A stretch of DNA of 64,000 nt. Source: an uncultured Chloroflexia bacterium (lineage in GTDB: Bacteria; Chloroflexota; Dehalococcoidia; Dehalococcoidales; RBG-16-60-22). The DNA lies in NCBI GenBank assembly GCA_963739395.1, contig CAVUAE010000001.1:1094056-1158055 (forward strand). The letters run 5' to 3'. Positions 5,958-30,015 of this stretch are shown in pieces (positions within the stretch are counted from its first letter, which is position 1; every line of letters starts with the position of its first letter). Position numbers and translations under genes: made by a program. Below the pieces are notes generated by a model. It searched no databases, was not told the origin of the DNA, and worked only from the letters and a program-made list of their open reading frames with translations.

Positions 5958-5973
5958 TACCACTGCACGAACA
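5958..5973. repeat. Left copy of 16-nt direct repeat TACCACTGCACGAACA (orphan dnaN 3'-end remnant)
   Basis: Identical 16-mer at 8421-8436. On the reverse strand it reads ATC CCA TTG TTC GTG CAG TGG TAG (IPLFVQW*), against dnaN's MPMFVQW*. Weaker similarity extends about 8-10 nt further. Confidence 0.8.
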
Positions 5974-6057
5974 ATGGGATGTCTGCCCTTTCATGCGTAC
6001 GTTTGTTCAGGCTAATTTGAAAAAATGTAGAATATTATTAGTCCGTTAATTGATAAC

Positions 6058-8229
6058 TCAACTAGCAAATTGGCTAATATCCCTGTAAAGTTGTTTTAAA
6101 TGATGGTCGGATAAATCTATCAGAGGTTCATACATGAAGGAATTGAGGTGGATAGCTTCCGGTGTCATCATTATGACCCTAGACAATAGTTTTCTAGATT
6201 CTTTGTCTGACGGAAATTTCTTTACAAAGTTGTCGAATAGCACTCTCGTTTGATTTCCACTAATATCTACTGTAACCGCGGGGTCATTTATTTTTTTTAT
6301 GATTGCTTTTTCAGCTTTGAGCCTTATTGCGATTGACAAAACGATTTTATTCTCAAGGTTAATAGTTTCGACATTATTGAGACAACACTCATCCGCCTGC
6401 TGAAAAATAAGAGAAATTACTGTGGTATTATCTGAGGTGATTGAAGGCGCAGGCGTAAATATAGTTCCATAGATAGATGCTAAATCGTTTAATGTAATCG
6501 AGTCTGTATCTGATTTGTAATGGAGTAATGACGTTAACTTTAAATACTCATGGTTAGATCGCCCTTTAGTATATTCAATAATGTTACGCGCCATTGGTAT
6601 AGTAGCTATTAGACAATTTTTATTGCCAGGCAGTTGATCTTTCCAACGTGTAAATGGAGTTCTTAAGCAATCAGCTTGTACCAATTTCACTTCTGATTCA
6701 GACTTGATTGACATCAGGCAATTCTCCCAATATACAGGAAGTCGGCTTTGTACTGTTCTAAAAAAATCAAAGTTATGAGTTAACAATAGAATTAGAAATT
6801 TTTTGGTTTCCTCTATTTCTTTCAAGTATTCAATGATCGCAAATTTGTTTTTGTAGTCAAAAGAATCTGCGATATCATCTAATACTAGAATAGTTTGATA
6901 ATCCTCTGTCTCACGTGCTCTTATCTCGTAAATTATATCTAATATATACAAAGCTCTTTTCTCGCCTGTACTTAATACACTTAACAATTCCACTTTATTC
7001 ATCTCACAGCGGTCAGTGCCATCTATATAATTAAAAGTTATTTTAGGTGTAATTTCCTTAAGAATCACTTCTTCTTGATTAGCTACTTCAATTTCGAAGG
7101 GTACTGTAAAACGTTCTTTAAAAATATTGATAACCTCTCGCCAACGAGTTTCTTGACTTCTTGCCTTATTAACAATTGAATCTATTTGTTTTTTACCTTC
7201 CTTAAAAACCTCAAGAAAATTTTTATAAAGTTCCTTCTCAGAAATTAGATAAGAAATCCATAGTTTCTTTTTGAAAGTATCAACACTAGCCAATTCAGGT
7301 AAAATTTTCATATTGTCTAATAGGTATTGATGAAACTTACGAAGTTCAGCATTACCCATAATCTTGAAATCAATTGAATTAAATTTATCCTTAAGTTCGG
7401 GATTATTTAATATTCGGTTTTCCTCTTCGGAAATAACTGCATCAAAATCAGATTGCGATGTAATTTCTGTTTTTTTAGAAGATGAATCTGATAGTAAAAT
7501 AGCATGTTTAGCGGAAAAGTATTTATTAGCTTTTAGGTTTTTTGATACAGTAGATGCGTTGTAGTGATTGAAGCCACCCTTTCTGAAATAATTTGAACTG
7601 TCGATAATTTCATTGTATTTATCAATATAGTCACACAACAAGGAATGCATGCCTGGTGATTTTAAAAAGGGTTCAGTCTTATCATTTATTACTTCGGAAT
7701 AAAGAATATCAGCAAAATCTGACGATGATGAATTAACATTATCTTGTAGTTTTGATAATAATAATGAACTGTCATTTGATTTATCATCGAAAGCTGATAG
7801 CATTAGTTGTTCAGCGTTCTTTTTTGTATTAGAAACTTTACCAATAGCTGATAATAGAGTAAGTCTAGAACTTTCAATAGATTTTGCTGTTGATTCGTAT
7901 TGTTTCCTTAATTCTTCGTCTACAAGCAAAGTAGATATACGTTCAGATTCGTATTTTTCGTCATATGAGTCAACGACAAATATATGAAGAGGGTTTAAAG
8001 AGTTACCTGTTTCGTCTTTAATATTACATAGTGCTGTTCTTTGAGTATAAATAGCGTCTCTAGGTTCTCTTGATTGGCTAAGGTCATTAAATACTTTTGC
8101 AAGGGATGTTTTCATTGCACCATTGGGAGCATAGAGTAAGAATGAGTTCGCATTAGTAGTAGCAAAGTCAAATTCATGTTTAAGTGCTTTTATTCCATAA
8201 CAATTTTTCAAATCAACGGAAATTTTCAT
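6058..8229 (-). CDS. AAA_13-like ABC-type ATPase with long coiled-coil insert and C-terminal effector-like domain (PrrC/RloC-like architecture)
   Basis: Degenerate Walker A LLYAPNGAMKTSLAKVF, ABC signature LSTGEKRALYIL, Walker B ILVLDDIADSFD, H-loop LLLTHNFDFF. About 300 aa of helical, low-complexity sequence lies between Walker A and the signature motif. The C-terminal 200 aa contain RNIIE...H...H. Confidence 0.65.
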   Translation of the reverse strand: MKISVDLKNCYGIKALKHEFDFATTNANSFLLYAPNGAMKTSLAKVFNDLSQSREPRDAIYTQRTALCNIKDETGNSLNPLHIFVVDSYDEKYESERISTLLVDEELRKQYESTAKSIESSRLTLLSAIGKVSNTKKNAEQLMLSAFDDKSNDSSLLLSKLQDNVNSSSSDFADILYSEVINDKTEPFLKSPGMHSLLCDYIDKYNEIIDSSNYFRKGGFNHYNASTVSKNLKANKYFSAKHAILLSDSSSKKTEITSQSDFDAVISEEENRILNNPELKDKFNSIDFKIMGNAELRKFHQYLLDNMKILPELASVDTFKKKLWISYLISEKELYKNFLEVFKEGKKQIDSIVNKARSQETRWREVINIFKERFTVPFEIEVANQEEVILKEITPKITFNYIDGTDRCEMNKVELLSVLSTGEKRALYILDIIYEIRARETEDYQTILVLDDIADSFDYKNKFAIIEYLKEIEETKKFLILLLTHNFDFFRTVQSRLPVYWENCLMSIKSESEVKLVQADCLRTPFTRWKDQLPGNKNCLIATIPMARNIIEYTKGRSNHEYLKLTSLLHYKSDTDSITLNDLASIYGTIFTPAPSITSDNTTVISLIFQQADECCLNNVETINLENKIVLSIAIRLKAEKAIIKKINDPAVTVDISGNQTRVLFDNFVKKFPSDKESRKLLSRVIMMTPEAIHLNSFMYEPLIDLSDHHLKQLYRDISQFAS

Positions 8230-8265
8230 ATTAACTCCTATGTATGGGGTTGAGAGTGTGCGTGT

Positions 8266-8294
8266 ATTATGCGCTTAGTGTTAAAATACGTCAA
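8266..8294 (-). promoter_or_regulatory. Sigma70-like promoter of the ATPase gene
   Basis: Reverse strand reads TTGACG - 17 nt - CATAAT, followed by RBS TAGGAG and ATG at 8229. Confidence 0.5.
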
Positions 8295-8363
8295 TATATG
8301 GGTAAAAAGAAGCGAGTAAAAAAAGCTTACAGTGGCTCGGCTCATTATTGGTCTGAACGTATG

Positions 8364-8391
8364 TAAAAAAAGGGGAGCATTTCTGCTCCCC
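8364..8391 (-). terminator. Rho-independent terminator downstream of dnaN
   Basis: 8-bp stem GGGGAGCA/TGCTCCCC (8372-8379 / 8384-8391) with loop TTTC. On the reverse strand it is followed by a 7-nt T-run (A-run 8365-8371 on plus). Confidence 0.7.
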
Positions 8392-8419
8392 CCTCGTTTT
8401 AATCAGGCTATTTCTTTAA

Positions 8420-9553
8420 TTACCACTGCACGAACATCGGCATGACAACGTGCGTGTAATTCTCTGACCCCACCGGACTGATAAGCCCCGGACTGGAAGG
8501 ATTAGTGATTGCCAGGGATACCTGCGATTCATGGAGGACGCTTAAAACATCGGTGAGGTACTTGCCGTTGAAAGCTATTTTGGCTTCGGCGCCCTCTACT
8601 GTGGCGTCGATTTCTCCAACGTCGTCGCCGATTTCTTCCGAGCGTGCCGAGACAGCCAGTTTGCCGGGATTCTTATCGTTGCTAGGTGTCACTACCAGGC
8701 GGACGATACCGCTGCCATCGCGCGCGAATATCGAGGCGGTCTTGGTGGCACGCAGGAATTCCGCCACGCTAACTATAACCCGTGTATTATAACTCTTGGG
8801 GATAAGCTGGGAGTAGTTAGGGAAGGTTCCCTGAACAAGCTGCGAGACTAATTCCGTACTCTTTAAACGGAACAAAACCTGACTCTTGTTGGGATTTAGC
8901 GTGAGGATAACGGCTTCTTCCTGGTCGCCGATAAGCCGATTTAATTCAGCTAAAGTGCGGGCGGGGATTATAACCTCGGTCTTCTCTTTGATTTTATCTT
9001 TAACCGGCATTTTAAAGACCGCCAGCCTGAAGCCATCAGCCGCAGCGAGGGTTAAGGCGCTACCTTCGAACTGGGTGCAGACGCCGGTCAGAACAGGACG
9101 TGATTCTTCGGTAGCGGCGGCGAAGACAACCTGGTTAATCGCCTGACGTAGAGCTTCAACTTCAACCTTGGTGGTGATGCCGTCATCAACGCTGGGGATG
9201 GGAGGAAATTCTTTAGCATCGACGCCGCTGATACGCGCTTCAAAACGGGCGCACTTAAGTCCTAATGTTTTCGTCTGCGGGGAGAGATTGACCGATATCG
9301 TTTCACCGGGTAATGAGCTAACGAATTCCGTAAGCAGTCGGGCTGGCACGGTAATGGAGCCCTCTTCTTCTATTTTGGCGCCAATCCAGCAGCTGATAGC
9401 CATTTCGAGATTAGTAGCGACGAGCTTCAAACGGCCTTCATCAGTGGCTAAAAGAACGTTATTAGTAATGGGCAAGGTCGTCCTGGTAGCTACCGCTCTC
9501 CCGACGATGCTCAATCCACGGTTAAGGTTTTCCTGAAGGCAGGTTAGTTTCAT
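8420..9553 (-). CDS. dnaN: DNA polymerase III beta sliding clamp
   Basis: 377 aa. MKLTCLQENLNRGLSIVGRAV... start, three-domain clamp length, C-terminal NYTHVVMPMFVQW. Confidence 0.93.
   Translation of the reverse strand: MKLTCLQENLNRGLSIVGRAVATRTTLPITNNVLLATDEGRLKLVATNLEMAISCWIGAKIEEEGSITVPARLLTEFVSSLPGETISVNLSPQTKTLGLKCARFEARISGVDAKEFPPIPSVDDGITTKVEVEALRQAINQVVFAAATEESRPVLTGVCTQFEGSALTLAAADGFRLAVFKMPVKDKIKEKTEVIIPARTLAELNRLIGDQEEAVILTLNPNKSQVLFRLKSTELVSQLVQGTFPNYSQLIPKSYNTRVIVSVAEFLRATKTASIFARDGSGIVRLVVTPSNDKNPGKLAVSARSEEIGDDVGEIDATVEGAEAKIAFNGKYLTDVLSVLHESQVSLAITNPSSPGLISPVGSENYTHVVMPMFVQW
8421..8436. repeat. Right copy of 16-nt direct repeat (functional dnaN 3' terminus)
   Basis: TACCACTGCACGAACA is identical to 5958-5973 and encodes the last codons of dnaN on the reverse strand. 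Confidence 0.8.
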
Positions 9554-9605
9554 GGTGCACCCCCAATAATAGCTTTGGTGGACTAGTATACAACATTATA
9601 CAGGA

Positions 9606-10091
9606 CTATTCAAGCTCAATGGTGCCGCTTTTACCGCCGCTTTTTTTCACGAGGCGGATATTCTCGATTTTCATGCCGCGGTCGACGGCTTTACACATAT
9701 CATAAATAGTAAGGGCAGTGACGGCAACGGCAGTCAGCGCTTCCATCTCCACGCCGGTCTTGCCGGTGCTGGAAACGGTGGCGGTGATGCCAATTGTGCT
9801 GGTGGCTTTATCTGGCGAGAACTCAATAGAAACATTACTGATGAGAATTGGATGACAGAGAGGGATGAGGTCGGGGGTTTTTTTCGCTGCCGTGATGCCA
9901 GCTAACTGCGCTGTGGTGAGGACGTCACCTTTGGCTACCTTACCACTCTGGATAAGCTTAAAAGTGGCGGGCTGCATCTTGACCACGCCTTTAGCAATGG
10001 CTATGCGGGCGGTGTCCTCTTTAGCGCTAATGTCCACCATACGAGGTCGCCCGGCGGCATCGACATGGGTCAGCTTTGATGTCTTTTTCAT
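9606..10091 (-). CDS. moaC: Cyclic pyranopterin monophosphate synthase
   Basis: LTHVDAAGRPRMVDISAK, PLCHP, GVEMEALTAV motifs; 161 aa. Confidence 0.93.
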   Translation of the reverse strand: MKKTSKLTHVDAAGRPRMVDISAKEDTARIAIAKGVVKMQPATFKLIQSGKVAKGDVLTTAQLAGITAAKKTPDLIPLCHPILISNVSIEFSPDKATSTIGITATVSSTGKTGVEMEALTAVAVTALTIYDMCKAVDRGMKIENIRLVKKSGGKSGTIELE

Positions 10092-10097
10092 CTTAAC

Positions 10098-13212: not shown

Positions 13213-13213
13213 G

Positions 13214-13804: not shown

Positions 13805-13812
13805 GGCGTTCG

Positions 13813-14956: not shown

Positions 14957-15037
<81 letters not shown>

Positions 15038-15208: not shown

Positions 15209-15577
15209 TTATTTAAAACCGCGATTTGTGTAATTCATGAAGCCGATAATGACAGCCACAATAGCGAACAGCATTTCAAAAATAAGACCAAAATCGATGA
15301 TTGAACCCTCTAGGCGGACGGCATAAATAATTGCACCGACTAATGCCAGAACGCCAACGACCATTAAGCCCAAGGCTCTGGCTTTAGCGTTGGCTAGAAA
15401 AGCGAGACCAAGGCCGAGGATAGCGGCAACACAGGACATAGCGCCCCAATTCGATGTGCCAGTAGTGCCGGCTATACCATTAAAACTGGCCCAGGGTAAA
15501 AAGATAGCGGTGAAAAGTATCATAGCGCAGATGACTAATGTAGGCATATGAGCCTTAGATTTAAAACTGATATCCAA
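15209..15577 (-). CDS. Small integral membrane protein (about 4 TM helices)
   Basis: 122 aa, almost entirely hydrophobic helices. RBS AGGAGG upstream. Confidence 0.6.
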   Translation of the reverse strand: MDISFKSKAHMPTLVICAMILFTAIFLPWASFNGIAGTTGTSNWGAMSCVAAILGLGLAFLANAKARALGLMVVGVLALVGAIIYAVRLEGSIIDFGLIFEMLFAIVAVIIGFMNYTNRGFK

Positions 15578-15768
15578 TTTTATTCCTCCTATAAACTAAT
15601 TTACTTAAAAATTCCACTCGGATTATTTTTACGATAAACACCTCCTTAGAGAGTCTTAGAAGCGTGGTATTTTTTGATAATAATAGGAATATTGTAAGAG
15701 CTTATTTTAAGCCTGTCAAGGTAACTAATAAATAAAATGATGTTTTTGCGTAAAATTATTTATGAGTA

Positions 15769-15797
15769 TTGACAAATATCTCTTTTCGTATTATTAT
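15769..15797 (+). promoter_or_regulatory. Sigma70-like promoter, probably producing a leaderless mRNA
   Basis: TTGACA (15769-15774) - 17 nt - TATTAT (15792-15797). ATG at 15804 is 7 nt after the -10 element. Confidence 0.55.
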
Positions 15798-15803
15798 GCG
15801 CAA

Positions 15804-16076
15804 ATGACGATGTCGCAGAACGATATCAGACCCAGATTCGTTAAAGGGCAGAAGGTTGTCATCAAACCCGTTAATGAAAAAGGCGCTTCCAAACGGGAAT
15901 ATGACGTTAATGAATTCGCCGGCGAAATCGGCGAAATTTCAAACTACTATTATATTAACGTGGGTATCAACCAGGTTTTCTTTCTTTATAACGTGAAAGT
16001 TGGCAAGGAAAAGAAGGAAATAACGGTTTATGAGGACGAACTAGAGCCGGTTTTGTGGGAAGAGGAAAAGAACTAG
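15804..16076 (+). CDS. Hypothetical protein (90 aa)
   Basis: Start moved from 15762 to ATG 15804 because the consensus promoter lies inside the longer ORF. Confidence 0.5.
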   Translation: MTMSQNDIRPRFVKGQKVVIKPVNEKGASKREYDVNEFAGEIGEISNYYYINVGINQVFFLYNVKVGKEKKEITVYEDELEPVLWEEEKN

Positions 16077-16135
16077 GTTTTTAAGCGCGGCTAGTCAGGG
16101 GAAAAGGCAAACCGCGTTTTTTTGTTTAAAAAATT

Positions 16136-16211
16136 TGGAGGCGACGGGCGGATTCGGACCGCCGAATAGGGGTTTTGCAGACCCCCGCCTTAACCACTTG
16201 GCCACGTCGCC
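16136..16211 (-). tRNA. tRNA-Cys (anticodon GCA), CCA encoded
   Basis: Reverse strand GGCGACG-TG-GCC..GGC-G-GGGGT-CTGCAAA-ACCCC-TATTC-GGCGG-TCCGAAT-CCGCC-CGTCGCC-T-CCA; a perfect cloverleaf. Confidence 0.92.
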
Positions 16212-19951: not shown

Positions 19952-21112
19952 TTATTCATGAACCAGCAATGGATGTTGAGTGAAGAACCATCCTGGCCAT
20001 AAGCCTACAGATTCACTATATAATTTCGCCAGTAGTAGTTTGCCATCAACGTTAATCTGGATATCAGTAAATTGTATATTCCATGATTCCTTTGCTGAGG
20101 CAGCTATCCCGGCAGGGTCTTCAATACGCTCCTTTAAGAGCGAGACGTTCGCCTGGGCATTAGTGTCACTTTCATGATAAATAACTAAGGCGGTGTAATA
20201 TCCCTTTTCATCTTGACCAACACCAAAGCCGGAAGTGAGAAAATGTTTAAGCAGCGGACCGGGATTATCTATTTCAATGTCCTCTGGGCCGACGGTTTGA
20301 GATTCATCTCCCATAATGGCGGTGTAAGTGCCCAATCTGAATAATCCCTCGGCTAAAGAGGCGTACTCCGGCAGGTCGGCCAGACTATGACCTTGATTTT
20401 GACTGGCATCAATCATTAGCTTAACAGCCTCTACCGAAGGACCATAGAACAAATACTTATCGGTAACTGCCAGGGGCATAGCACGGCCTAACTCATCAAT
20501 ATGAGGAGGCAGCAATCTTGTAGTAAGGTGGTTCTGTAAACCATCGCCCCAGCTATGGATGGTAATGCCGCGATATTCTTCGGTAGTGTAATCCTCTTTT
20601 GCCCAAGAAGGCCATTCATCTTGATGGCTTAAGGTATCTTTGGTGGCTTGAGGGTCGAATCTACCGATAGCGGCAACTCCTATTTTCGGTGTCATGCCGA
20701 ACTGGATTTCTGCATCGACACAAGTGACATCATAGCCGATGTATTCTTTCCTATTAGTTTCCTTAATTATTGGTTCAAAGGCGAAACGTCCATAGCCGGT
20801 AATATATGAGCCTGATGCCGCTGCCATCATCACGATATCATCCTTATTAACCGCGTTGTACATATCCTCCGGCTTGGTTAAGACGATACCGGCATCTTTA
20901 TAGATACGGGCGTAATCAAGGAGGGTGAAAGAAAAAGGCATGCCTTCGCCCACCGCGGACGCTGGCACCAGATTAAGGAGTTCCATGAAAGTATTGGATG
21001 TTTCGGTTTCAGAACTCCCGTCGCAGCTAGCGAATACAGGTAGAATTAATATCAAGACGCTCAAACAAACCAGGAGACATAGGCAATGACTTAGTATCTT
21101 TTTCCTAATCAT
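19952..21112 (-). CDS. Secreted lipoprotein, function unknown
   Basis: Start chosen at MIRKKILSHCLCLLVCLSVLILILPVFASCDG, a signal peptide with a lipobox-like FASC. Confidence 0.6.
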   Translation of the reverse strand: MIRKKILSHCLCLLVCLSVLILILPVFASCDGSSETETSNTFMELLNLVPASAVGEGMPFSFTLLDYARIYKDAGIVLTKPEDMYNAVNKDDIVMMAAASGSYITGYGRFAFEPIIKETNRKEYIGYDVTCVDAEIQFGMTPKIGVAAIGRFDPQATKDTLSHQDEWPSWAKEDYTTEEYRGITIHSWGDGLQNHLTTRLLPPHIDELGRAMPLAVTDKYLFYGPSVEAVKLMIDASQNQGHSLADLPEYASLAEGLFRLGTYTAIMGDESQTVGPEDIEIDNPGPLLKHFLTSGFGVGQDEKGYYTALVIYHESDTNAQANVSLLKERIEDPAGIAASAKESWNIQFTDIQINVDGKLLLAKLYSESVGLWPGWFFTQHPLLVHE

Positions 21113-21167
21113 GGCAATGGAAATTATAAGCCCAGAGTGATGAGAAGTCAATAGAAAAGAACCTTAA

Positions 21168-21236
21168 ACCATACCGGTGAAAACCGGAATCCAGTAAAAA
21201 CAGGTAATAACTGGATCCCGTTTTTCAACGGGATGG
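21168..21236. repeat. Structured intergenic repeat, copy 1
   Basis: CCATACCGGTGAAAACCGGAATCCAGT...ACTGGATCCCGTTTTTCAACGGGATGG, forming three small hairpins. Second copy at 37105-37172. Confidence 0.8.
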
Positions 21237-21266
21237 GGTTGAGGGAAAAAGGGGAGGATAAAACGA

Positions 21267-21608
21267 TTATTTTTGTGAAGTTACACTTTTTGATTTAGCG
21301 TATAACTCTAGAAGTTTGAACATCTGATCAAGATGAAACTGAATTCTGCCATTCTCATAATCTGGAATTTTACTAATGATAAATCCGGGTTTTCCCTTAT
21401 TTTTTCCACCTATGCCAAATCGTTGTTCTTTGTCTTTAAGCGCCATTTTGTTTATATAATCGAGTGTTTCTCTAGCTGCAATACTTAAAGCAGTGGAGTA
21501 CATCTGTTTATAAAGCTTATCAATCTCTCCCTTATCAAATAGTTTCTTAATATTTAAGCTCAAGTTTCCTATGATATTTTCTACTATGTTTATTCTAGGT
21601 GAAACCAT
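21267..21608 (-). CDS. AT-rich hypothetical protein (113 aa) immediately downstream of nrdJ
   Basis: Starts 10 nt after the nrdJ stop on the same strand. Codon usage and composition differ visibly from nrdJ. No recognisable motif. Confidence 0.55.
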   Translation of the reverse strand: MVSPRINIVENIIGNLSLNIKKLFDKGEIDKLYKQMYSTALSIAARETLDYINKMALKDKEQRFGIGGKNKGKPGFIISKIPDYENGRIQFHLDQMFKLLELYAKSKSVTSQK

Positions 21609-21618
21609 ATTTTACCTC

Positions 21619-24219
21619 TTAGCACTTCGTATACCCGCAAGCCGGGCAGTGGTAGCAGCCTTCCTGGAAAACAAGCAGATTTTGACATTCCGGACATTGT
21701 TTTAACTGCCCGACCATGGTTTTTGAAAGTCCATAGTCCTCGGTCTTGGGCTTATCGCCGCCGTTGATGTGCTTTTCCAGTACGCTGGCAATAGCATCGG
21801 CGCAAGAAAGGATAGACTTACCTTGTTCCCAAGCAATAGTAGGGCAGCGAATACCGCGCAGCTGCTTTACTACCTGAGCCACATCTACTCCTGAACGTAA
21901 GGAAAGAGAAATTAGGCGGCAAATAGCTTCTAGTTGTGCTGATGCACAACCGCCGGACTTACCGAGGGTGGAAAATACCTCAAAGATGCCCTTGTCATCG
22001 TAATTAACAGTAATATATAAAGAGCCGCAGCCGGTATTGACCTTGGTTGAAGTCCCTTTAATTTCAGTAGGTCGCTTGCGCGGGGTACGGCTGACGGGGT
22101 CTTCGGCTGGTTTTTCTGGTTTTTTGCCGGTGGTCAGCACCTGGCTATCCCGCGAGCGGTCACGGTAGATAGTGATGCCTTTAAGTCCTTCTTCATAAGC
22201 GAGCATGTAAGCGTGGGCGATATCATCACGGGTGGCGGACTGGGGGAAGTTGATAGTTTTGGAGACGGCGTTATCGGTCGAGCGCTGGAAAGCCGCCTGC
22301 ATTTTCACATGCCATTCCGGGGTGATTTCATGGGCGGTGACGAATACACGCTTAATATCATCGGGTACATTCTTGATGTCGGCTAAATGCTCGCCTTCCG
22401 CCAGCTTTTTCATCAGTTCGTCGGAGTAAAAGCCGCCTTTTTTCGCTGCGTCTTCAAAATAGGGATTTACCTCAACGAAGGGCGTACCGTCGAGAACGGT
22501 TTTAGTGTAACTCAAAGCAAAGAGAGGTTCGATGCCGCTGGAACAGCCGGCAATCATGCTTAAGGTGCCGGTGGGGGCGATGGTGGTGCGGGTGGCGTTG
22601 CGTACTTTAGGTCCGTTAGGCACATCATAAATACTGTCCTTAAAAGCCGGGAAAGTACCCCGCTCCTTTGCCAGCTCTACCGAGGCTTTAAAGGCTTCCT
22701 CACCGATAAAACGCATTAGTTTTTCTGCAACGTCAAGCGCTTCCTCGGAGTTATACGGCACGCCAAGCATCACCAGCATATCGGCAAAGCCCATGATGCC
22801 CAGGCCGATTTTACGCGTCTTTTTAGTCATTTCCTCTATCTGGGGCAGGGGGAATTTATTAACATCAATAACATTATCCAGGAAACGGATGGCTGTTTTA
22901 ACTGTTCTCGCTAGCTTGGGGTGGTCGATTTCGTAGCCGCCGCCCTTCTTTTTCATCATGCGGGAGAGGTTAATAGAAGCCAGGTTACAGGACTCGTAGG
23001 GGAGTAGAGGCTGCTCGCCGCAGGGGTTAGTGCTTTCAATTCTACCGAGATGCGGCGTAGGATTAGCCTCGTTAATGCGGTCGATGAAGATAATCCCAGG
23101 GTCTCCCGTGCGCCAGGCCATGTCCACGATTTTTTCGAAGACCACTTTAGCGTTGAGCTTGCCGGTGACCTCTTTAGTATGGGGATTGATTAATTCATAA
23201 TCGGCGCCTGCCTTGACCGCTTCCATATAGTCCGCTGTCAAAGCCACAGAGAGATTGAAATTAGTCAGCGCGGTCATTTTTTCTTTAGCGGTGATGAACG
23301 TCATAATATCGGGATGATTGATGTTCAGGATGCCCATGTTAGCGCCCCGCCGCGTACCACCCTGCTTGGTGACGTCGGTGACGGTATCGAAGGCGCGCAT
23401 GAAGGAAACCGGTCCGCTGGCGACGCCGCCGGTAGAGCCGACCACATCGTTTTCCGGGCGAAGACGGGAGAAGGAAAATCCCGTGCCGCCGCCGCTTTTA
23501 TGAATAAGCGCGGTGTATTTCACGGCGTCAAAAATAGACTCCATGGAGTCTTCGACAGGGAGGACGAAGCAAGCGGAAAGCTGCCCCAGCTTTTTACCAG
23601 CATTCATCAACGTGGGAGAATTAGGGAGGAATTCCAGATTGTACATCAGCTTGAAAAAGTCATCTTCAACAGATTTAGCATTAGCTTTAGGACTATAAAT
23701 TAACTCCGCGGCAGCGATGGCTTTGGCTACCCGTCGGAACATTTCTTCCGTTGTTTCTATAATTTTACCTTTGCTGTCTCTTAATAAGTAGCGTCTTTCC
23801 AGCACCTGTCGAGCTGTGTCGGTCAGGCCATTAGCAGTGATTGTGTCTTTAGGATTTTTTACTTCGGTTTCGGTGTCCATTTCGGCTTTGACCTCCTCTA
23901 CTGGCGTTGGTACTGGTTCCGCTTGGGGTTTTTCGGCATTAAGCACTTCCATCACCATGGCTTCGATTTCCGCTTCGGTGGGCATTCTGCCGTGGGGAGC
24001 CTGGCGAGAATGTCGGTCCACCAGTTCCTCCATGCCCGGCAAAGTGGGCAATGCTTGCGACTGCGCTCTTTCCAGTCGCTCAATAACCTGCCCTGTCAGT
24101 TTTTCCACGAGCTTACGGTCGCGGATACCCATGGCGGCGGCGTTATCGAAGACGATGCGCGCTATCTGACTTCGATTAACGGAAGAAGCGTTCCTCTTGC
24201 CGGCGTGATTATTCAACAC
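21619..24219 (-). CDS. nrdJ: Class II (adenosylcobalamin-dependent) ribonucleotide reductase with an N-terminal extension of about 140 aa and a C-terminal Zn ribbon
   Basis: LERRYLLRD, SACFVLPVEDS, NPCGEQPLLPYESCNLASINL, TIAPTGTLS, C-terminal CPECQ...CYHCPACGYTKC. GTG start with AAGGTAGGAG RBS. Confidence 0.93.
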   Translation of the reverse strand: MLNNHAGKRNASSVNRSQIARIVFDNAAAMGIRDRKLVEKLTGQVIERLERAQSQALPTLPGMEELVDRHSRQAPHGRMPTEAEIEAMVMEVLNAEKPQAEPVPTPVEEVKAEMDTETEVKNPKDTITANGLTDTARQVLERRYLLRDSKGKIIETTEEMFRRVAKAIAAAELIYSPKANAKSVEDDFFKLMYNLEFLPNSPTLMNAGKKLGQLSACFVLPVEDSMESIFDAVKYTALIHKSGGGTGFSFSRLRPENDVVGSTGGVASGPVSFMRAFDTVTDVTKQGGTRRGANMGILNINHPDIMTFITAKEKMTALTNFNLSVALTADYMEAVKAGADYELINPHTKEVTGKLNAKVVFEKIVDMAWRTGDPGIIFIDRINEANPTPHLGRIESTNPCGEQPLLPYESCNLASINLSRMMKKKGGGYEIDHPKLARTVKTAIRFLDNVIDVNKFPLPQIEEMTKKTRKIGLGIMGFADMLVMLGVPYNSEEALDVAEKLMRFIGEEAFKASVELAKERGTFPAFKDSIYDVPNGPKVRNATRTTIAPTGTLSMIAGCSSGIEPLFALSYTKTVLDGTPFVEVNPYFEDAAKKGGFYSDELMKKLAEGEHLADIKNVPDDIKRVFVTAHEITPEWHVKMQAAFQRSTDNAVSKTINFPQSATRDDIAHAYMLAYEEGLKGITIYRDRSRDSQVLTTGKKPEKPAEDPVSRTPRKRPTEIKGTSTKVNTGCGSLYITVNYDDKGIFEVFSTLGKSGGCASAQLEAICRLISLSLRSGVDVAQVVKQLRGIRCPTIAWEQGKSILSCADAIASVLEKHINGGDKPKTEDYGLSKTMVGQLKQCPECQNLLVFQEGCYHCPACGYTKC

Positions 24220-24252
24220 AGCTCCTACCTTAATAACAGCAATTCCATTTAT

Positions 24253-25080
24253 CTATCCATCTAAAAAAGAAAGAGATACAATATATCTATTTACTCCGTA
24301 CCCAAACCCTTTTATTTCAGAAGGGAAACGTTTTTTCCCCTTACCGAACTTATATTGTAAATCTCCCTTTAGCAGTGTATTGAAATTGTAGGCATCATGT
24401 AATATAGAGGGTGGATTTACGTTTTTATTTAATGGTGAAAATAAAGTATTACCAATCTTTTTCTTCTTAGGCCATGATAACTGAAGTGAATTTGGTTGGT
24501 TTTTACGTGGTGTCCATTTTGAAACATAACAAGGTTTTTGACTAGTTTCAGAGACTCTTATTGCAGCTGATTGTATTGAGACTTTGAATAAATCAGCCAA
24601 ACGCTCAATAGATTGTATTGACGTTCCTAGTTCATCTAAGTATTTGCTAAACACTGATGTTGGCATCAATAACTCTGTGGCAGCCTCATCACATAGTTTT
24701 TCTACGACTTTAGAACGTTTTCTTTGTACAACTTGCGGATTGAATGTCCTGTGTTCAATAGTATTTATATATTGTTCCAATTTTAACGCACTATATAATA
24801 AATGTCCGATTTCATGGGCACAAGAAAAATTTTGTCTTACCAAAGGGTCATTTATATTTAGTTTTATTTTAGATCCACTATCAAATCGTAGAAGGACACC
24901 TCCAGATTTACCCGCTTTGCCAAGGTCCGTTTTTTCAATGCTTTGAACTCCAACTAAAGAAGCATATTCTTCTGATAAAAATGGTGGGTTATCATGCCCT
25001 CTTTTGGCTATCAACTCGGTTACAAGCTGTCGCGCCCGTTCAATAATTAGTTCAGAAGCTGTTTCTAACTTAATAACCAT
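24253..25080 (-). CDS. ImmA/IrrE-family (COG2856-like) zinc metallopeptidase with an uncharacterised C-terminal domain
   Basis: HEXXH motif in FSCAHEIGHLLYS, followed by the downstream EAATELLMP typical of ImmA/IrrE. About 95 aa of unknown C-terminal sequence. AT-rich. Confidence 0.75.
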   Translation of the reverse strand: MVIKLETASELIIERARQLVTELIAKRGHDNPPFLSEEYASLVGVQSIEKTDLGKAGKSGGVLLRFDSGSKIKLNINDPLVRQNFSCAHEIGHLLYSALKLEQYINTIEHRTFNPQVVQRKRSKVVEKLCDEAATELLMPTSVFSKYLDELGTSIQSIERLADLFKVSIQSAAIRVSETSQKPCYVSKWTPRKNQPNSLQLSWPKKKKIGNTLFSPLNKNVNPPSILHDAYNFNTLLKGDLQYKFGKGKKRFPSEIKGFGYGVNRYIVSLSFLDG

Positions 25081-25082
25081 AA

Positions 25083-25421
25083 TTACTTTTCGTATTTTGA
25101 CATATAGTCGTTTATCTGCTGCTCTTTTAAAGGAATGAGTTTCTTCATTTCTTCATCCATTACTAAGTCAATAGGATCTTTGTTTTGTCTTCCTTCTACT
25201 CCATATAGAGCTCGGATAAGACTCTTACGTTGGGCATCATTTGTTGTTTTACGTGGTTCATGTATACAACTGTGTAGCACTTCTTTTAAGGAATAAGGAA
25301 GATAATCATATTTTTTTATTGGTATTTTATAATACCCGAACCACAGTCTAATGTCTTGCCATAACGTTCTTTTTGTGATTTGCCTATGTGTCTTTTTATT
25401 GATAAATTCTTCTATCTCCAT
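25083..25421 (-). CDS. AT-rich hypothetical protein (112 aa), partner of the ImmA-like gene
   Basis: Its stop lies 2 nt from the ImmA-like start. RBS GGAG before ATG 25421. No obvious HTH seen by eye. Confidence 0.55.
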   Translation of the reverse strand: MEIEEFINKKTHRQITKRTLWQDIRLWFGYYKIPIKKYDYLPYSLKEVLHSCIHEPRKTTNDAQRKSLIRALYGVEGRQNKDPIDLVMDEEMKKLIPLKEQQINDYMSKYEK

Positions 25422-25465
25422 GTTTCACTCCAGACAAGATATTACATGCTTTATTATTATAACAT

Positions 25466-26002
25466 TCATCGCCGCTTCCTCCGCGGGGGCTTTGTCTTTT
25501 TTACAGGCATTTCGTCTTGCTTAAAGAGGGGGAGCTGGTCGGCGGGGGGTAAAGGGGCATGGTCGGCGAGGTCATCCACTTCTTCCTTGAGCGTAGTGAT
25601 ATCTTCAAACTCGCGATAAACGCTGGCGAAGCGGATATAAGCAATATGGTCAGTCTTTTTAAGTTTTTGCATAACAAGGTCACCGATATAAAAACTAGCA
25701 ATTTCGGCATGGCCGGACTGATAAAGCTTGCCTTCTATTTCGTCAACGAGCTTATTTACAGTACCGGAGGGTAGAGGTCTTTTTTCGCAGGCTTTACGGA
25801 TGCCCGCTAGTAACTTCTCGCGGTCGAACTCCTCACGGCGTCCATCCTTCTTAATGACAAAAAGACTGGCGCGCTGCAAGCGCTCGTAGGTGGTGAAACG
25901 CAAGTCACACCGCAGACACTGGCGTCGGCGGCGGACACCGTCGTTCACGTCGCGCGAGTCGATTACCTTGGAGTCGTTATAGCCGCAGAAGGGGCAGTTC
26001 AC
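25466..26002 (-). CDS. nrdR: Transcriptional repressor NrdR (Zn ribbon + ATP-cone) with an extended basic C-terminal tail
   Basis: CPFCGYNDSKVIDSR...RRRRQCLRCDLRFTTYE Zn ribbon, followed by an ATP-cone. GTG start with GGAGG RBS. Tail ...PVKKTKPPRRKRR. Confidence 0.93.
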   Translation of the reverse strand: MNCPFCGYNDSKVIDSRDVNDGVRRRRQCLRCDLRFTTYERLQRASLFVIKKDGRREEFDREKLLAGIRKACEKRPLPSGTVNKLVDEIEGKLYQSGHAEIASFYIGDLVMQKLKKTDHIAYIRFASVYREFEDITTLKEEVDDLADHAPLPPADQLPLFKQDEMPVKKTKPPRRKRR

Positions 26003-26012
26003 CTGCCGACCT

Positions 26013-26067: not shown

Positions 26068-26157
26068 TGGGGTCTCACGTGTGAAACATGTTAAAATATT
26101 ATTAAAATTTTTACTTTACCGCAATACCGCAATAGGCTATGATTATTTTGAAGAAAA

Positions 26158-27474
26158 ATGATGAACTACCAGCAAGCTCTGGACTATTTATTGAAGTTCG
26201 CTGATTATGAGCGCCTGCCGCGCTCGGGAATTGTGTGGGACCTGAAGCGTATCGAACGACTGCTGGCAAGACTGGATAATCCGCAGAACTTCGCGCGGTC
26301 GGTACATGTAGCGGGGACGAAAGGGAAGGGCAGCACTTCTGCGATGATAGCGTCGATTTTGCATAGTGCCGGTTATAAAGTGGGACTTTATACCTCCCCC
26401 CACCTCCTCTCTTACACAGAACGCATACAAGTTAACGGCAAGCCCATCGCCGAGGCAGACTGGGCGAAGCTGGTTGAAATTATACAGCCGCATGTCGAAG
26501 CGGAGAATGCGCTGGGCGACCTCGGGCAATTAACGACTTTTGAAATTTTTACGGCGATGGCGTTCCTCCATTTCCAGCGAGTGAAGGCGGACTGGCAGGT
26601 GCTGGAGGTGGGCTTAGGGGGACGGCTCGACGCCACGAACGTAATCCAGCCGCAGGTGTGCGTGATAACGTCCATCAGCTTCGACCACATGGACGTACTG
26701 GGGGATACGCTGGCGAAAATAGCCGGGGAGAAATGCGGCATCATCAAGCCGGGGGCGGATGTCGTGACCGCGCCGCAGTTCCCGGAAGCTCTAGAGGTCA
26801 TCAAGCGGGTGTGTACGGAAAAGAACGTCCGCCTGATAAAAGTGGGGCAGGACGTTACATGGGAGAGGGTTGGCTTTAATCAAAAGGGGCAGAGTTTCCG
26901 CGTGAAGGGACTGAAGGGAAAATATAAGTTAAGGATTCCACTGCTGGGTTTGCACCAGCTGGAGAACGCCGCCAATGCCGTCGCCGCCGCGGAACTGCTC
27001 CAGGAAAAAGACGCGAAGATATCATCCAAAAACATCGCCGAGGGACTAGCCAAAGTGGACTGGCCGGGTCGCTTACAGGTCTTGAGGAAAAAGCCGTGGG
27101 TCGTCGTCGACGGGGCGCATAACGCTTACTCGATGAAGCGACTGGTCGAGGCGATAGAGGAGTATTTTAAGTACGACAAGGTGAAGCTGATTTTAGGGTT
27201 CGGGGCGGATAAAGACATAGCGGGCATGGCGGCGGAGGCGGCGGAATTAACGAGCGACATCATCCTGGTGGCGTCCAAGCACCCGCGGGCGGTAAAGGCG
27301 GAGGCTTTAGTAGCCGAGTTCCAGAAGCACCGGGTGACGCCGCGCTTGGCGGAGAGCGTAAAGGACGCGATGAAACTGGCGCTGGGGGAGGCGGGACCTA
27401 AAGACCTTATCTGCGCGGCGGGGAGCATCTTTGTGATTGCCGAGGTGATGGAGGGATTTAAAAACCCTCTCTAA
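26158..27474 (+). CDS. folC: Bifunctional folylpolyglutamate synthase/dihydrofolate synthase
   Basis: HVAGTKGKGST P-loop, GLYTSPHL, LEVGLGGRLDATN, DGAHN motifs. Confidence 0.92.
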   Translation: MMNYQQALDYLLKFADYERLPRSGIVWDLKRIERLLARLDNPQNFARSVHVAGTKGKGSTSAMIASILHSAGYKVGLYTSPHLLSYTERIQVNGKPIAEADWAKLVEIIQPHVEAENALGDLGQLTTFEIFTAMAFLHFQRVKADWQVLEVGLGGRLDATNVIQPQVCVITSISFDHMDVLGDTLAKIAGEKCGIIKPGADVVTAPQFPEALEVIKRVCTEKNVRLIKVGQDVTWERVGFNQKGQSFRVKGLKGKYKLRIPLLGLHQLENAANAVAAAELLQEKDAKISSKNIAEGLAKVDWPGRLQVLRKKPWVVVDGAHNAYSMKRLVEAIEEYFKYDKVKLILGFGADKDIAGMAAEAAELTSDIILVASKHPRAVKAEALVAEFQKHRVTPRLAESVKDAMKLALGEAGPKDLICAAGSIFVIAEVMEGFKNPL

Positions 27475-27541
27475 CTCTCCCTTTACAAAAGGGAGAGGAT
27501 GAATTTTTACTCTTTCGTAAAGAGGAACCAAGGGAGTTTTT
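27460..27541. repeat. Direct repeat A flanking the DUF559 gene
   Basis: AAAAACCCTCT..CTCTCCCTTTACAAAAGGGAGAGG...CTCTTTCGTAAAGAGG.A.CAAGGGAGTTTTT contains two hairpins. A near-copy lies at 27897-27985. Confidence 0.8.
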
Positions 27542-27896
27542 ATAAATTGTTAAGCTTTTGTTCAATTACTTCAATTACACCATCAATATTGTTGAATATA
27601 TCTATATTCGTGAACCTTAGAACTGTTAATCCCATACTCTCTATAAACTCATCTCTGATCCAATCGTATTTTTTTGTATTGTTGGAAAAATGTTGTCCAC
27701 CATCTACTTCAACCACTAACATTGCTTTATGGCAATAGAAGTCAGCAATATATTCTCCCAAAGGCTTTTGACGTGAGAACATAAAACCTTTTAGCTGTTT
27801 CATCCTAAGCTTAGACCACAATAATTTTTCAGCATCTGTCATGTTGTTTCTAAGTTCTTGGGATAGCTGCTTCAATTTTGGGTTATATAGATGCAT
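27540..27896 (-). CDS. DUF559 (Vsr-like endonuclease fold) protein
   Basis: LRNNMTDAEKLLWSKLR...GFMFSRQKPLGEYIADFYCHKAMLVVEVDGGQH matches the DUF559 pattern. Confidence 0.85.
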   Translation of the reverse strand: MHLYNPKLKQLSQELRNNMTDAEKLLWSKLRMKQLKGFMFSRQKPLGEYIADFYCHKAMLVVEVDGGQHFSNNTKKYDWIRDEFIESMGLTVLRFTNIDIFNNIDGVIEVIEQKLNNL

Positions 27897-27985
27897 AAAA
27901 ACCCTCTTTTGTCTCCCTTTAAAAAAGGGAGAGGTAATTCCTTTTCCGTCTCCCTCTTTCGTAAAGAGGGATAAAGGGAGTTTTT
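27897..27985. repeat. Direct repeat B flanking the DUF559 gene
   Basis: Same two-hairpin unit as 27460-27541, in the same orientation. Confidence 0.8.
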
Positions 27986-27990
27986 CTAAC

Positions 27991-28014
27991 GCCGAGGTGA
28001 TGGGGGGGTTGAAA
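27991..28014. repeat. Second copy of the folC 3' terminus
   Basis: GCCGAGGTGATGGGGGGGTTGAAA against folC's GCCGAGGTGATGGAGGGATTTAAA at 27439-27462 (21/24 identical). The two copies bracket repeat A, DUF559 and repeat B. Confidence 0.75.
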
Positions 28015-28023
28015 CATGCAAAA

Positions 28024-28926
28024 TTACTTCAGTCCTAACGGAAGATAATTAGCTACAAATCGATATGTATCTGCACCTGAATCCGTAGTTTCAATTTTAT
28101 TATGGAAAAATGAATGAATAAAATTTATTGTTGAATCATTTATATTATAGGTTGTACCAAGAATTCTTTTATTTGATAAATCGGCATTATTAATAAGTAA
28201 TTTTAGAGTTGTTTGATCATACCCAAAACCTATAAACACAAGATTAAAAGCATCTCTTATTGCTGCTTGAGCATCACGGAAATCATTTGTATCATCTAAC
28301 CGATCTGATGTAATTCTGATACCTTCCGCAGCATTTTTAAGTATTCCCGCAACACTAAAACTCTCTCCGTAGTTTATTTCTGGATAACGGCCAAGACTTC
28401 CATGAGCATGTATAATTTTAAGAGTAGCTAGTTTTTGCGTGGCATGTTGGGTTAAGTCATCTGGGCAGTTATACTGTATATTTTTGTGTAAAAAGTGTTC
28501 TAGTGATCTATCGTAATTTAAAGTAACAAACACAATATTATTCGCATTTGGTTTATTATTTTCAAAATCTAACACATTGTATAAATGACTATACCAATCT
28601 TTTTGAGGAAATAAATAATCTGTTCTTTCGAGAGGTAATAATGTATAGGCTATTGCATATGCACCGATTTCTCTAAATTTGCTCTTTTTTTCAAGAAATA
28701 TATCTATTGTTGGATAACTAGTGTATTTTAAAGCTTCAGCGAAATTGTCGGCAAGTAAATTGTCAAATTTATTATGTGCAAGAGTATTAACGTGATTTAT
28801 ATTGATTCCAGAGATCATTATGGTTTTAAGTTCTGTACCTAATGGTAGGCCATAAGGTTTACTCGCTCTAGCCCCAAGAACAAATACTGTCTTTTTATTA
28901 AGATCGATTGGTTGTATTTCTACCAT
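28024..28926 (-). CDS. Stand-alone SIR2-like (SIR2_2 / ThsA-type) protein, putative NAD+-consuming effector
   Basis: Four blocks are collinear with the ThsA SIR2 domain: VFVLGARASKPYGLP (GAGxS loop), VTLNYDRSLEHFL (TTNYD), IIHAHGSL (catalytic His), VFIGFGYDQTTL. Very AT-rich. ATG 28926 lies 3 nt after the ribD stop, with SD GGAGGAG inside the ribD 3' end. Confidence 0.7.
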   Translation of the reverse strand: MVEIQPIDLNKKTVFVLGARASKPYGLPLGTELKTIMISGININHVNTLAHNKFDNLLADNFAEALKYTSYPTIDIFLEKKSKFREIGAYAIAYTLLPLERTDYLFPQKDWYSHLYNVLDFENNKPNANNIVFVTLNYDRSLEHFLHKNIQYNCPDDLTQHATQKLATLKIIHAHGSLGRYPEINYGESFSVAGILKNAAEGIRITSDRLDDTNDFRDAQAAIRDAFNLVFIGFGYDQTTLKLLINNADLSNKRILGTTYNINDSTINFIHSFFHNKIETTDSGADTYRFVANYLPLGLK

Positions 28927-28929
28927 TTT

Positions 28930-30015
28930 TTATCTCCTCCCCTCCACCACAATATCCACCCCGCTCTTATAAACCTTCTCAACCTTTAACTTATAAGCCT
29001 TAGCTAAGTCCGTAATATTAAGCTCGCCGACGGCGTCGGTGCCTTTGCCCAAGATTTTGGGGGCGATAATCACCACCACCTTATCCGCCAAACCCAGTCT
29101 TAAGAAAGAGGTAATCACCTCCCCGCCCCCCTCCACCAAAAGCGACGTGATTTCACGCTCGCCTAGAGATTTCAACAGTTTTTTTAAGTCCATTTTATCC
29201 TGACTATCCGGCGGGATAATTAAGACCTCGATGCCCATCTTTTGCAGGGCGGCGAGCTTGGCTTTAGTCGCATGGGTAGTGGTGGCAACGATAGTTTTGG
29301 CTTTATTTTGGTTTTTCAGCACCTTAGCGTCGAGGGGAATCCTTAGCGTGGAGTCCAGAACTATGCGGAGTGGATTTCTGCCTTTGACTAGTCGCGTGGT
29401 CAGCTCGGGGTTATCTTTTGTCACCGTGCCTGCGCCGACTAAAATAGCGTCGTTAGTAGCGCGTAGTTGATGCGCCAGTTTCTGGGACTCCGGGGAGCTA
29501 ATCCAGCGTGAGGAGCCTTTAGCGGTGGCGATGCGCCCGTCCAGCGTCTGCGCCCACTTAAGCGTGACGTAAGGGATGCCGGTAGTACGGTGCTTGATAT
29601 ACTTTTCGTTCAGAACAAGGCAGTCCGCCTCCAGCACGCCAACCGTCGTCTTAATCCCCTTCTGGTTCAGGAGTTTCACACTTTCGCCGCGCATCTTGGG
29701 GTCGGGGTCAAGCATGCCGATAACTAAACGCCCGATTTTACTTTTGATAATGGCGTCGGTGCAGGGTGGGGTCTTGCCGTAATGGCGGCAGGGCTCTAAA
29801 GTAACGTAAAGCGTCGCTCCGGCAACGGATTCTTTAGCTTTTTTAAGCGCATCCACCTCCGCGTGGTCGAGTCCAAAGGCGTGATGATACCCCTCCCCGA
29901 TAATCCTCCCGTCCTTCACGATGACGGTGCCCACCATAGGATTGGGGGAGGTTTTGCCCAGTCCCTTACGCGCCAGCTTTAAAGCCAGCCGCATGTATTG
30001 TTCGTCATTAACCAT
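28930..30015 (-). CDS. ribD: Riboflavin biosynthesis deaminase/reductase
   Basis: HAEVDAL and TLEPCRHYGKTPPC deaminase Zn motifs plus a C-terminal reductase domain. Start moved to ATG 30015 (MVNDEQYMRLAL...), because the longer ORF merely translates the tandem repeat. Confidence 0.92.
   Translation of the reverse strand: MVNDEQYMRLALKLARKGLGKTSPNPMVGTVIVKDGRIIGEGYHHAFGLDHAEVDALKKAKESVAGATLYVTLEPCRHYGKTPPCTDAIIKSKIGRLVIGMLDPDPKMRGESVKLLNQKGIKTTVGVLEADCLVLNEKYIKHRTTGIPYVTLKWAQTLDGRIATAKGSSRWISSPESQKLAHQLRATNDAILVGAGTVTKDNPELTTRLVKGRNPLRIVLDSTLRIPLDAKVLKNQNKAKTIVATTTHATKAKLAALQKMGIEVLIIPPDSQDKMDLKKLLKSLGEREITSLLVEGGGEVITSFLRLGLADKVVVIIAPKILGKGTDAVGELNITDLAKAYKLKVEKVYKSGVDIVVEGRR

Follow-up and report, generated by a model that had tools for sequence, protein, structure and literature searches.

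AT-rich genes behind housekeeping genes in a Dehalococcoidales genome: a recurrent insertion site at the dnaN 3' end and, probably, other routes

Did the AT-rich genes that lie directly behind essential housekeeping genes in a small bacterial genome all arrive there in the same way? The question is raised by a 64,000-nucleotide (nt) stretch of DNA (the window; C1:1094056-1158055) from an uncultured member of the Dehalococcoidales, here called G000, whose genome measures 1.79 Mb at 46.5% GC (guanine plus cytosine) in an assembly of two contigs. An initial annotation of the window had described dnaN, nrdR, nrdJ and ribD as each followed on the same strand by strongly AT-rich genes, and had proposed one route of integration for all four junctions. 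We found that integration at the 3' end of dnaN is real, recurrent across the order and apparently undescribed. As for the four junctions, we consider it likely that they are four of about 108 islets in this genome and that they arose by at least three different routes. The cargo genes are foreign, or at least accessory.

We computed a composition profile of the window, and it confirmed the drop in GC that had been described. GC was 0.29-0.36 at 6000-8300, 21200-21600, 24200-25400 and 27400-28900 and 0.45-0.58 elsewhere (400-nt windows); per gene it was 0.31-0.35 for the six cargo genes and 0.51-0.56 for their hosts. Matches in Pfam and PADLOC also upheld the labels given to hosts and cargo (dnaN, nrdR, nrdJ, ribD, ImmA-like, SIR2-like, DUF559). 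The ATPase behind dnaN had been called AAA_13; Pfam yielded only a weak SMC_N match, and the protein instead matched the PADLOC profile PDC-S46 over its full length. Same-strand gaps, taken from open reading frame (ORF) coordinates, were 190 nt between dnaN and the ATPase gene, 44 nt between nrdR and orf112, 2 nt between orf112 and the ImmA gene, 33 nt between the ImmA gene and nrdJ, 10 nt between nrdJ and orf113, 3 nt between ribD and the SIR2 gene and 127 nt between the SIR2 gene and DUF559 (Table 1).

Tight docking on the same strand was found to be nothing special in this genome. With AT-rich defined as GC < 0.38, 130 of the 1838 ORFs of G000 qualified; they form 108 runs (islets), 91 of them single genes, so that there is an islet about every 16 kb, and 3.9% of 23-kb windows hold four or more. 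AT-rich genes with a GC-normal upstream neighbour were on the strand of that neighbour in 66 of 90 cases (73%), compared with 1017 of 1361 (75%) for ordinary genes (Fisher p=0.80). The median gap behind the neighbour was wider rather than tighter, at 68 nt versus 27 nt for normal genes. Judged by the annotation's own refuting condition, a pattern no more frequent than random gene order predicts, the same-strand docking that had been singled out is the product of compact gene order. Convergent gaps were enriched for islets (28/108 versus 13.1%, p=3e-4), and divergent, promoter-side gaps were not depleted of them (18.5% versus 13.6%).

At dnaN, the last 25 nt of the gene (the proximal copy, 8420-8444) recur on the same strand as a pseudo-dnaN 3' end (the distal copy, 5957-5981), as had been noticed from the sequence. 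The two copies share a core identical at 16 of 16 positions, with the stop codon in register, and where the dnaN end reads MPMFVQW-stop the distal copy reads IPLFVQW-stop; the latter lies 25 nt past the stop codon of a convergent NIF3-like gene (5123-5929). The proposed terminator and separate promoter in the gap of about 190 nt before the ATPase gene were both recovered, as a hairpin at 8372-8391 and a promoter-like site at 8294-8266. The ATPase matched PDC-S46 with E=6.1e-262 (residues 2-720 on profile positions 3-717 of 719), which makes it a candidate defence gene. It was not found downstream of dnaN in 12 relatives. Homologs occur at 33-42% identity in other phyla, and one of 66% identity, not beside dnaN, in another metagenome-assembled genome (MAG) of the order (L051). 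This last homolog shares only the coding region and has no dnaN core nearby, so the idea that the cargo travels with the adjoining arm of an attachment (att) site was rejected. No recombinase was found in or near the islet. G000 as a whole has no serine recombinase (zero PF00239 matches), and none of its 8 PF00589 matches is near these islets or close to the one integrase seen in a dnaN insert (that of G121, below).

We then compared the dnaN end across related genomes. The order moaA-moaC-dnaN is kept in the genus, and the sequence downstream of dnaN is different in every genome. A pseudo-dnaN end was present on the same strand, 126-2336 nt downstream, in 9 of 12 relatives (10 of 13 close genomes with G000), and G011 has two such copies. 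Each insert bounded in this way carries a different cargo, with a GC of 0.37-0.50 compared with 0.50-0.62 in dnaN. The exact 18-mer ATGTTYGTNCARTGGTRR occurs in 110 of 151 genomes of the order, from 89 genera, and in at least two copies in about 49 of them, while its reversed control occurs in none (0/151). The 18-mer often forms pairs or arrays on a single contig and strand; G109:C1, for instance, has four copies. At dnaN itself arrays were seen in G011, G020, G046 and G109; G000 has a single module.

The boundaries of the repeat are constant. In 18 genomes of many families its start falls 17-26 nt ahead of the stop codon's end, and its own end lies within a few nt of the stop codon in every pair but one; perfect pairs include 28/28 in G018 and 25/25 in G001. 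Directly upstream of the distal core there are arms that do not derive from dnaN, in three families that are shared across genera and accompany differing cargo. The arm of G000 groups with those of G018 and G097, whose inserts encode an FG-GAP and a SIR2-like protein. The dnaN terminator hairpin also follows the distal repeat copy in many relatives. The cargoes of the dnaN islets, taken together with those of the other 3'-end duplications in G000 (below), include a nuclease/phosphatase-fold protein, lipoproteins, a tubulin-like CetZ, FG-GAP, NYN and FRG proteins, a TRAP transporter and a cyclophilin. A recombinase was found in the 6.3-kb insert of G121, which carries a PF00589 tyrosine integrase together with a phage replisome-organiser gene.

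These observations suggest an attachment site, formed by the final ~25 nt of dnaN (CATGCCNATGTTYGTNCARTGGTRR), for a family of integrative elements across the order. Integration would leave dnaN intact, and the far edge would gain an element-derived arm and a second copy of the core. Both the recombination chemistry and mobilisation in trans are inferred. The module in the window, which has no recombinase, could be a relic or be cis-mobilisable, with the PDC-S46 gene as sole cargo, presumably transcribed from a separate promoter past the dnaN terminator. Nothing was found in the literature on dnaN as an integration site in this group. The core sequence CATSCCNATGTTYGTNCARTGGTRR could serve as a tag for finding further copies.

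Three side observations bear on dnaN. In family-A arms (L028, L031, L130, L023, L128) an outward-facing extended -10 box (TGGTATAAT or TGGTAAAAT) lies ~55 nt upstream of the core, and the dnaN terminator hairpin follows the core in 3 of these 5 copies; the box could yield a transcript of ~100 nt or drive downstream genes. The contigs of many MAGs among the relatives (G013, G001, G016, G017, G005, G007, G023) stop 0.2-1.5 kb downstream of dnaN, and assembly breaks there are to be expected if the site is strain-variable. Outside the window, in the region C1:1434450-1440551, G000 has a second, divergent dnaN-like ORF (399 amino acids, ~31% identity). It adjoins one intact and one broken tyrosine recombinase gene and may be part of a mobile element with its own sliding clamp.

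The junction between nrdR and nrdJ was found to be of a different kind. In 18 relatives the two genes are 26-62 nt apart by tblastn, with the nrdR stop codon overlapping the nrdJ start codon (ATGA). In G000 nrdR is still followed by 10 nt from the beginning of the former nrdJ start (25460-25469), after which comes a 1.2-kb segment with orf112 and the ImmA gene; nrdJ now takes its ribosome-binding site and start codon from the end of this segment. An imperfect ~12-nt repeat (TGTT..AATAAT) is present at both edges of the segment. The insert thus duplicates the 5' end of nrdJ and not a 3' end. The ImmA protein matched Peptidase_M78 (PF06114, E=5.7e-14) and a CapP-like profile (E=2.6e-23); orf112 matched no family in Pfam, PADLOC, PHROGs or NCBIfam, and no adjacent helix-turn-helix repressor partner was found. 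ImmA homologs of 45-52% identity occur in about 10 of the 151 genomes, in nine families. All 5 that were examined (6/6 with G000) lie between nrdR and nrdJ, and at least three have a remnant of the nrdJ 5' end. Because the homologs are always at this position in the genomes examined, we regard them as a site-bound module and not as random cargo.

The module would be tied to the overlapping nrdR stop and nrdJ start and would necessarily be carried within the operon transcript. Its exclusive position between nrdR and nrdJ points to a possible link with the control of ribonucleotide reductase; a regulatory link between the ImmA-type protease and NrdR is an obvious hypothesis. An integron cassette was considered at this site and the reading was provisionally dropped. 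The downstream junction GTTGAAT fits GTTRRRY but the upstream junction does not, the 33-nt tail between the ImmA gene and nrdJ has direct and not inverted repeats by eye, and there is no array and no IntI or other tyrosine recombinase nearby.

The slots behind nrdJ and ribD gave a third picture. Co-oriented ORFs start at most 58 nt past the nrdJ stop codon in 12 of 19 genomes and at most 98 nt past the ribD stop codon in 11 of 12; those behind nrdJ represent at least 10 unrelated families, those behind ribD at least 8. No duplicate of the 3' end was found for nrdJ in any of the 19 genomes, or for ribD in any of the 12. The comparison of loci across relatives that the initial annotation had suggested bore it out at dnaN, where duplicated ends recur, and not at nrdJ or ribD. 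Both slots have the features of recombinase-free hotspots: conserved flanks, variable cargo, no mobility gene and no repeats. The only homolog found for orf113 is in the same slot of G005, and the gene is nearly absent from 150 genomes of the order. The ribosome-binding sites of both orf113 and the SIR2 gene lie inside the ends of their host genes. These two genes would most simply have been exchanged by recombination in the conserved flanks, leaving no scar.

The annotation had also held that the cargo relies on housekeeping transcription. As a general property this fails at dnaN, where the cargo has its own predicted promoter after the terminator. For orf112 with the ImmA gene, for orf113 and for the SIR2 gene, co-transcription with the host genes is plausible. 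The slot between nrdJ and a DUF2344 gene that holds orf113 also holds a 399-amino-acid ORF (19952-21151, GC 0.45), with no family and no homolog at the corresponding loci of 18 relatives. A strong promoter-like site at 21151-21123 (11/12) suggests that its true start is further downstream.

Between folC and ribD, which are convergent, DUF559 and the SIR2 gene lie behind both genes at once. The folC 3' end is duplicated, as had been proposed: 27439-27462 recurs at 27991-28014, and the copy runs on as an open tail to a stop codon at 28036-28038. This displaced tail lies beyond U', one of two direct copies of a ~90-nt element (U) that bracket DUF559, and runs into the last codons of the SIR2 gene. 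The termini of U are inverted (AAAAACCCTCTC...AAGGGAGTTTTT), and two hairpins lie between them. The element is present in full about five times in G000, mostly adjoining AT-rich genes (beyond the window at C1:183918-183987, 997891-997958 and 1163056-1163180), and in relatives its copies lie directly against the stop codons of folC, ribD and nrdJ. The folC-ribD distance is 7 nt in G018 and 0.3-7 kb, with varying content, in other genomes. DUF559 is found in this gap in six relatives of the genus; the SIR2 gene is found there only in G000 and has a single homolog (33%) among 150 genomes of the order.

The folC-end duplication was seen in two genomes only, G000 and G008. In G008 a lone 165-nt U-type element at the folC end stands between ~28-nt repeats of that end, which ties the duplication to the insertion of U. 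We suggest that U inserted in the folC 3' end and duplicated it, with two copies now flanking DUF559 in the window. Upstream of ribD there is a 29-nt tandem repeat of 4.3 copies (30028-30153). On the minus strand its units resemble a degenerate promoter (TCGACA-17-TATGGT), the last being near-perfect (TCGACA-17-TATAAT, 30053-30025). The 385-amino-acid ribD ORF is probably over-called at 30087, with its true start near 30013.

Duplicated 3' ends were also looked for in the rest of the genome. The last 39 nt of each gene plus 6 nt downstream were searched against the next 8 kb; at a score of at least 16 there were 21 matches downstream, 11 upstream and 0 for the reversed query. With tandem paralogs set aside, seven cases had an insert between the host gene and a pseudo-3' end that keeps frame and stop codon. 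The hosts are dnaN, folC, an etfA-like gene, pckA, a GNAT gene, a dnaC-like gene and recO. Four of the inserts have 30-35% GC and two ~40% (among the five hosts other than dnaN and folC, four inserts span 30-41%), and their cargoes are mutually unrelated. The cargoes of the ~20 dnaN islets are unrelated as well, and a common mobility gene in the cargo was rejected for both sets on this ground. The differences between copies are mainly synonymous (5 of 5 coding differences in pckA, 6 of 8 in the etfA-like gene), which indicates that the two copies descend from orthologs of different lineages. A decayed target-site duplication was rejected on the same concentration at synonymous sites. Four extra copies of the 3' end of transfer-messenger RNA (tmRNA) were found in G000, and several tRNAs also have extra 3'-end copies.

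Integration at gene 3' ends as proposed by the annotation thus stands for dnaN, folC, five more protein genes, tmRNA and several tRNAs, and does not stand for nrdR, nrdJ and ribD. A more general, tentative and rather doubtful reading is that in the Dehalococcoidales the last ~25 nt of essential genes (dnaN foremost, but also folC, recO, pckA, etfA, tmRNA and tRNAs) serve as sites of attachment or homology that can move with the cargo. Recombinases acting in trans, or host recombination, would swap accessory or defence genes one at a time at these sites, in a dispersed, integron-like traffic of cassettes that has no resident integrase; the conserved arms would be recombination sites, possibly with an outward promoter.

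Could one lineage-specific mechanism, which inserts small cassettes at housekeeping 3' termini and relies on host transcription, explain all of this after all? It would account for the duplicates at dnaN and folC, the five other protein genes and the tmRNA and tRNA cases, and the gaps of 3-10 nt with ribosome-binding sites in the host gene end fit it for SIR2 and orf113. We nevertheless judge it improbable. The single route for four junctions founders on the nrdJ and ribD ends, which have no duplicates, and on the ImmA module, which is cargo-specific and duplicates a 5' end. Same-strand placement does not exceed the genomic background, gaps are wider than that background, and islets are not depleted at divergent gaps. 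Cargo lies on the opposite strand to folC, and also in the GNAT and dnaC-like cases, and the dnaN cargo has its own predicted promoter after a terminator. Still less credible is that the AT-rich genes are native, either fast-evolving or weakly expressed, or that they reflect mis-assembly of a MAG. DUF559 is indeed conserved in the folC/ribD gap across the genus, and the ImmA module could be ancestral with many losses. However, PDC-S46, SIR2 and orf113 are missing at the corresponding loci of 12-18 relatives, hardly any of 150 genomes of the order has them, PDC-S46 has relatives in other phyla, and the junctions are base-precise inside operons and accompanied by repeats. Mis-assembly is also at odds with an assembly of two contigs and with the same architecture in independent assemblies.

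It is unlikely, though less so than either of these, that no site-specific machinery is involved and that all islets, including that at dnaN, are exchanged between related strains by homologous or homology-facilitated illegitimate recombination anchored in conserved core genes, the pseudo-ends being by-products or portable homology arms. Nearly all islets are without recombinases, the sequence past dnaN differs in every genome, the scarless nrdJ and ribD slots fit, and the synonymous divergence shows that the copies come from different lineages. The PDC-S46 homolog of L051, which shares the coding region only, indicates that cargo moves without arms. Illegitimate joins should scatter, yet the boundaries of the dnaN repeat are constant over many families, and the non-dnaN arms beside the distal core are conserved across genera. 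Tandem arrays and one insert with an integrase and a phage replication gene also argue for site-specific integration at dnaN, and ssrA islands in Dehalococcoides have been described with this very design (PMC3146451).

Several points weigh against our reading of several routes with site-specific integration at dnaN. A recombinase was found in only 1 of 23 dnaN loci (G121). Homologs of its integrase occur in 31 other genomes, none of them on dnaN contigs and many at contig ends. A resident integrase acting in trans was rejected, as G000 has only Xer-like matches to the G121 integrase, at 24-27% identity. The terminator hairpin in G000 follows the proximal copy and not the distal one as in many relatives, which suggests a secondary rearrangement, and the repeat of G146 runs 117 nt beyond the stop codon, longer than a simple core. 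A purely recombinational spread, with the pseudo-end as a short homology arm, is possible. ORFs were called genome-wide with a home-made greedy longest-ORF caller, not a trained gene finder, and the relatives are mostly fragmented MAGs.

The closest parallel is provided by the ssrA genomic islands of Dehalococcoides mccartyi, whose target is the 3' end of an essential gene present in one copy (McMurdie et al. 2011, PMC3146451). At their distal edge that end recurs as a direct repeat of ~20 nt, next to a conserved motif from outside the target gene that comes before it; they form tandem arrays of low GC, and some integrase-less modules were read as cis-mobilisable (PMC3146451). The concept of the cis-mobilisable element (CIME) is cited in PMC3146451 and PMC5704250. 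The dnaN islets share the 3'-end repeat, the conserved arm, the low GC, the integrase-less modules and, in some genomes, the arrays. In contrast, their target is a protein gene with a core that ends at the stop codon, and they are mostly 0.1-9 kb long with one to few genes. G000 has no serine recombinase (DsiB/CcrB type), and a tyrosine integrase is the sole recombinase seen in any dnaN insert.

Other known systems resemble parts of the picture. The prophage e14 and phage 21 integrate inside the 3' end of Escherichia coli icd and supply a replacement end. As here, the coding end is duplicated, the differences are mostly synonymous and one copy comes from another host lineage; e14 and phage 21 are complete prophages with integrases, whereas the inserts here are single-gene modules without one. 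In Streptococcus thermophilus, CIMEs and accretion at the fda 3' end are known from ICESt1/ICESt3, as integrase-less modules bounded by attL/attR-type repeats of a housekeeping 3' end. They are not known to move without the help of a related element. The likeness lies in an integrase-less module between such repeats, but no helper element was found in G000. Oliveira et al. 2017, Johnson et al. 2023 and Hochhauser et al. 2023 reportedly describe recombinase-free turnover and core defence hotspots with varied, often defence, cargo. The nrdJ, ribD and folC/ribD slots are alike in kind but differ in holding only one or two genes, which in a very small genome adjoin essential operons to the base or lie within them. 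For U, the known class for comparison is that of repetitive and mosaic extragenic palindromes (REP/BIME) and miniature inverted-repeat transposable elements (MITEs). U is similar in its ~90 nt, inverted termini, internal hairpins, many copies and position at gene 3' ends, and differs in the 13-28-nt duplications of the coding end on either side of its insertion at folC and in the two direct copies that bracket DUF559.

The Dehalococcoidales have tiny, streamlined genomes and are mostly uncultured, and what is known of the turnover of their defence and accessory genes comes mostly from the Dehalococcoides ssrA islands. If our reading is correct, dnaN would be a second, order-wide integration site, its core a sequence tag for strain-variable cargo in metagenomes. 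It would also explain why MAG contigs frequently break just past dnaN, and, for a group that lacks genetic tools, would supply a candidate pair of att site and integrase from which to build them. The finding that a foreign gene behind an essential gene largely reflects compact gene order calls for caution against over-reading such arrangements elsewhere.

Table 1. Features at the four junctions, in window coordinates
Feature	Position	Strand	Basis
dnaN (sliding clamp), GC-normal host	8420..9553	-	Pfam DNA_pol3_beta domains 1-3
Proximal repeat copy, last 25 nt of dnaN, CATGCCGATGTTCGTGCAGTGGTAA	8420-8444	-	repeat search
dnaN terminator hairpin GGGGGGAGCAGAAATGCTCCCC, then T run	8372..8391	-	sequence
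Promoter-like site before ATPase gene, TTGACG-17-CATAAT, 10/12	8266..8294	-	consensus match only
ABC/SMC-type ATPase, PDC-S46, 723 amino acids, GC 0.32, sole cargo of dnaN islet	6058..8229	-	PADLOC, PHROG 38705
Element-side arm adjoining distal repeat, ACGCATGAAAGGGCAGACAT...	5982..6016	-	shared with G018 and G097 islets carrying other cargo
Distal pseudo-dnaN 3' end, CATCCCATTGTTCGTGCAGTGGTAG, IPLFVQW-stop	5957..5981	-	repeat search
nrdR	25466..26002	-	Pfam
orf112 (25083-25421, no family) and ImmA/IrrE-type M78 peptidase (24253-25080), GC 0.32-0.35	24253..25421	-	
nrdJ, class II ribonucleotide reductase	21619..24219	-	Pfam
orf113, GC 0.31, starts 10 nt after nrdJ stop	21267..21608	-	ORF coordinates
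folC, Mur-ligase family, convergent with ribD; proximal repeat 27439-27462	26158..27474	+	Pfam
U copy of palindromic element; supplies last four codons and stop of folC	27459..27545	+	
DUF559 (Vsr-like nuclease fold), 118 amino acids, GC 0.33	27540..27896	-	
U' copy of ~90-nt palindromic REP/MITE-like element	27897..27989	+	
Pseudo-folC 3' end (AEVMGGLKHAKLLQS-stop), overlaps last codons of convergent SIR2 gene	27991..28038	+	
SIR2_2-domain protein, 300 amino acids, GC 0.31, starts 3 nt after ribD stop	28024..28926	-	
ribD, start probably over-called	28930..30087	-	

An Rfam scan of the window returned three tRNAs and a thiamine pyrophosphate (TPP) riboswitch only, with no match for U. Finally, a further AT-rich patch at 15400-16100 (GC 0.34), at which no tRNA 3'-end repeat was detected, holds two small orphan ORFs (15209-15577 on the minus strand and 15762-16076 on the plus strand) and is flanked by tRNA genes at 14957-15037 and 16139-16211.

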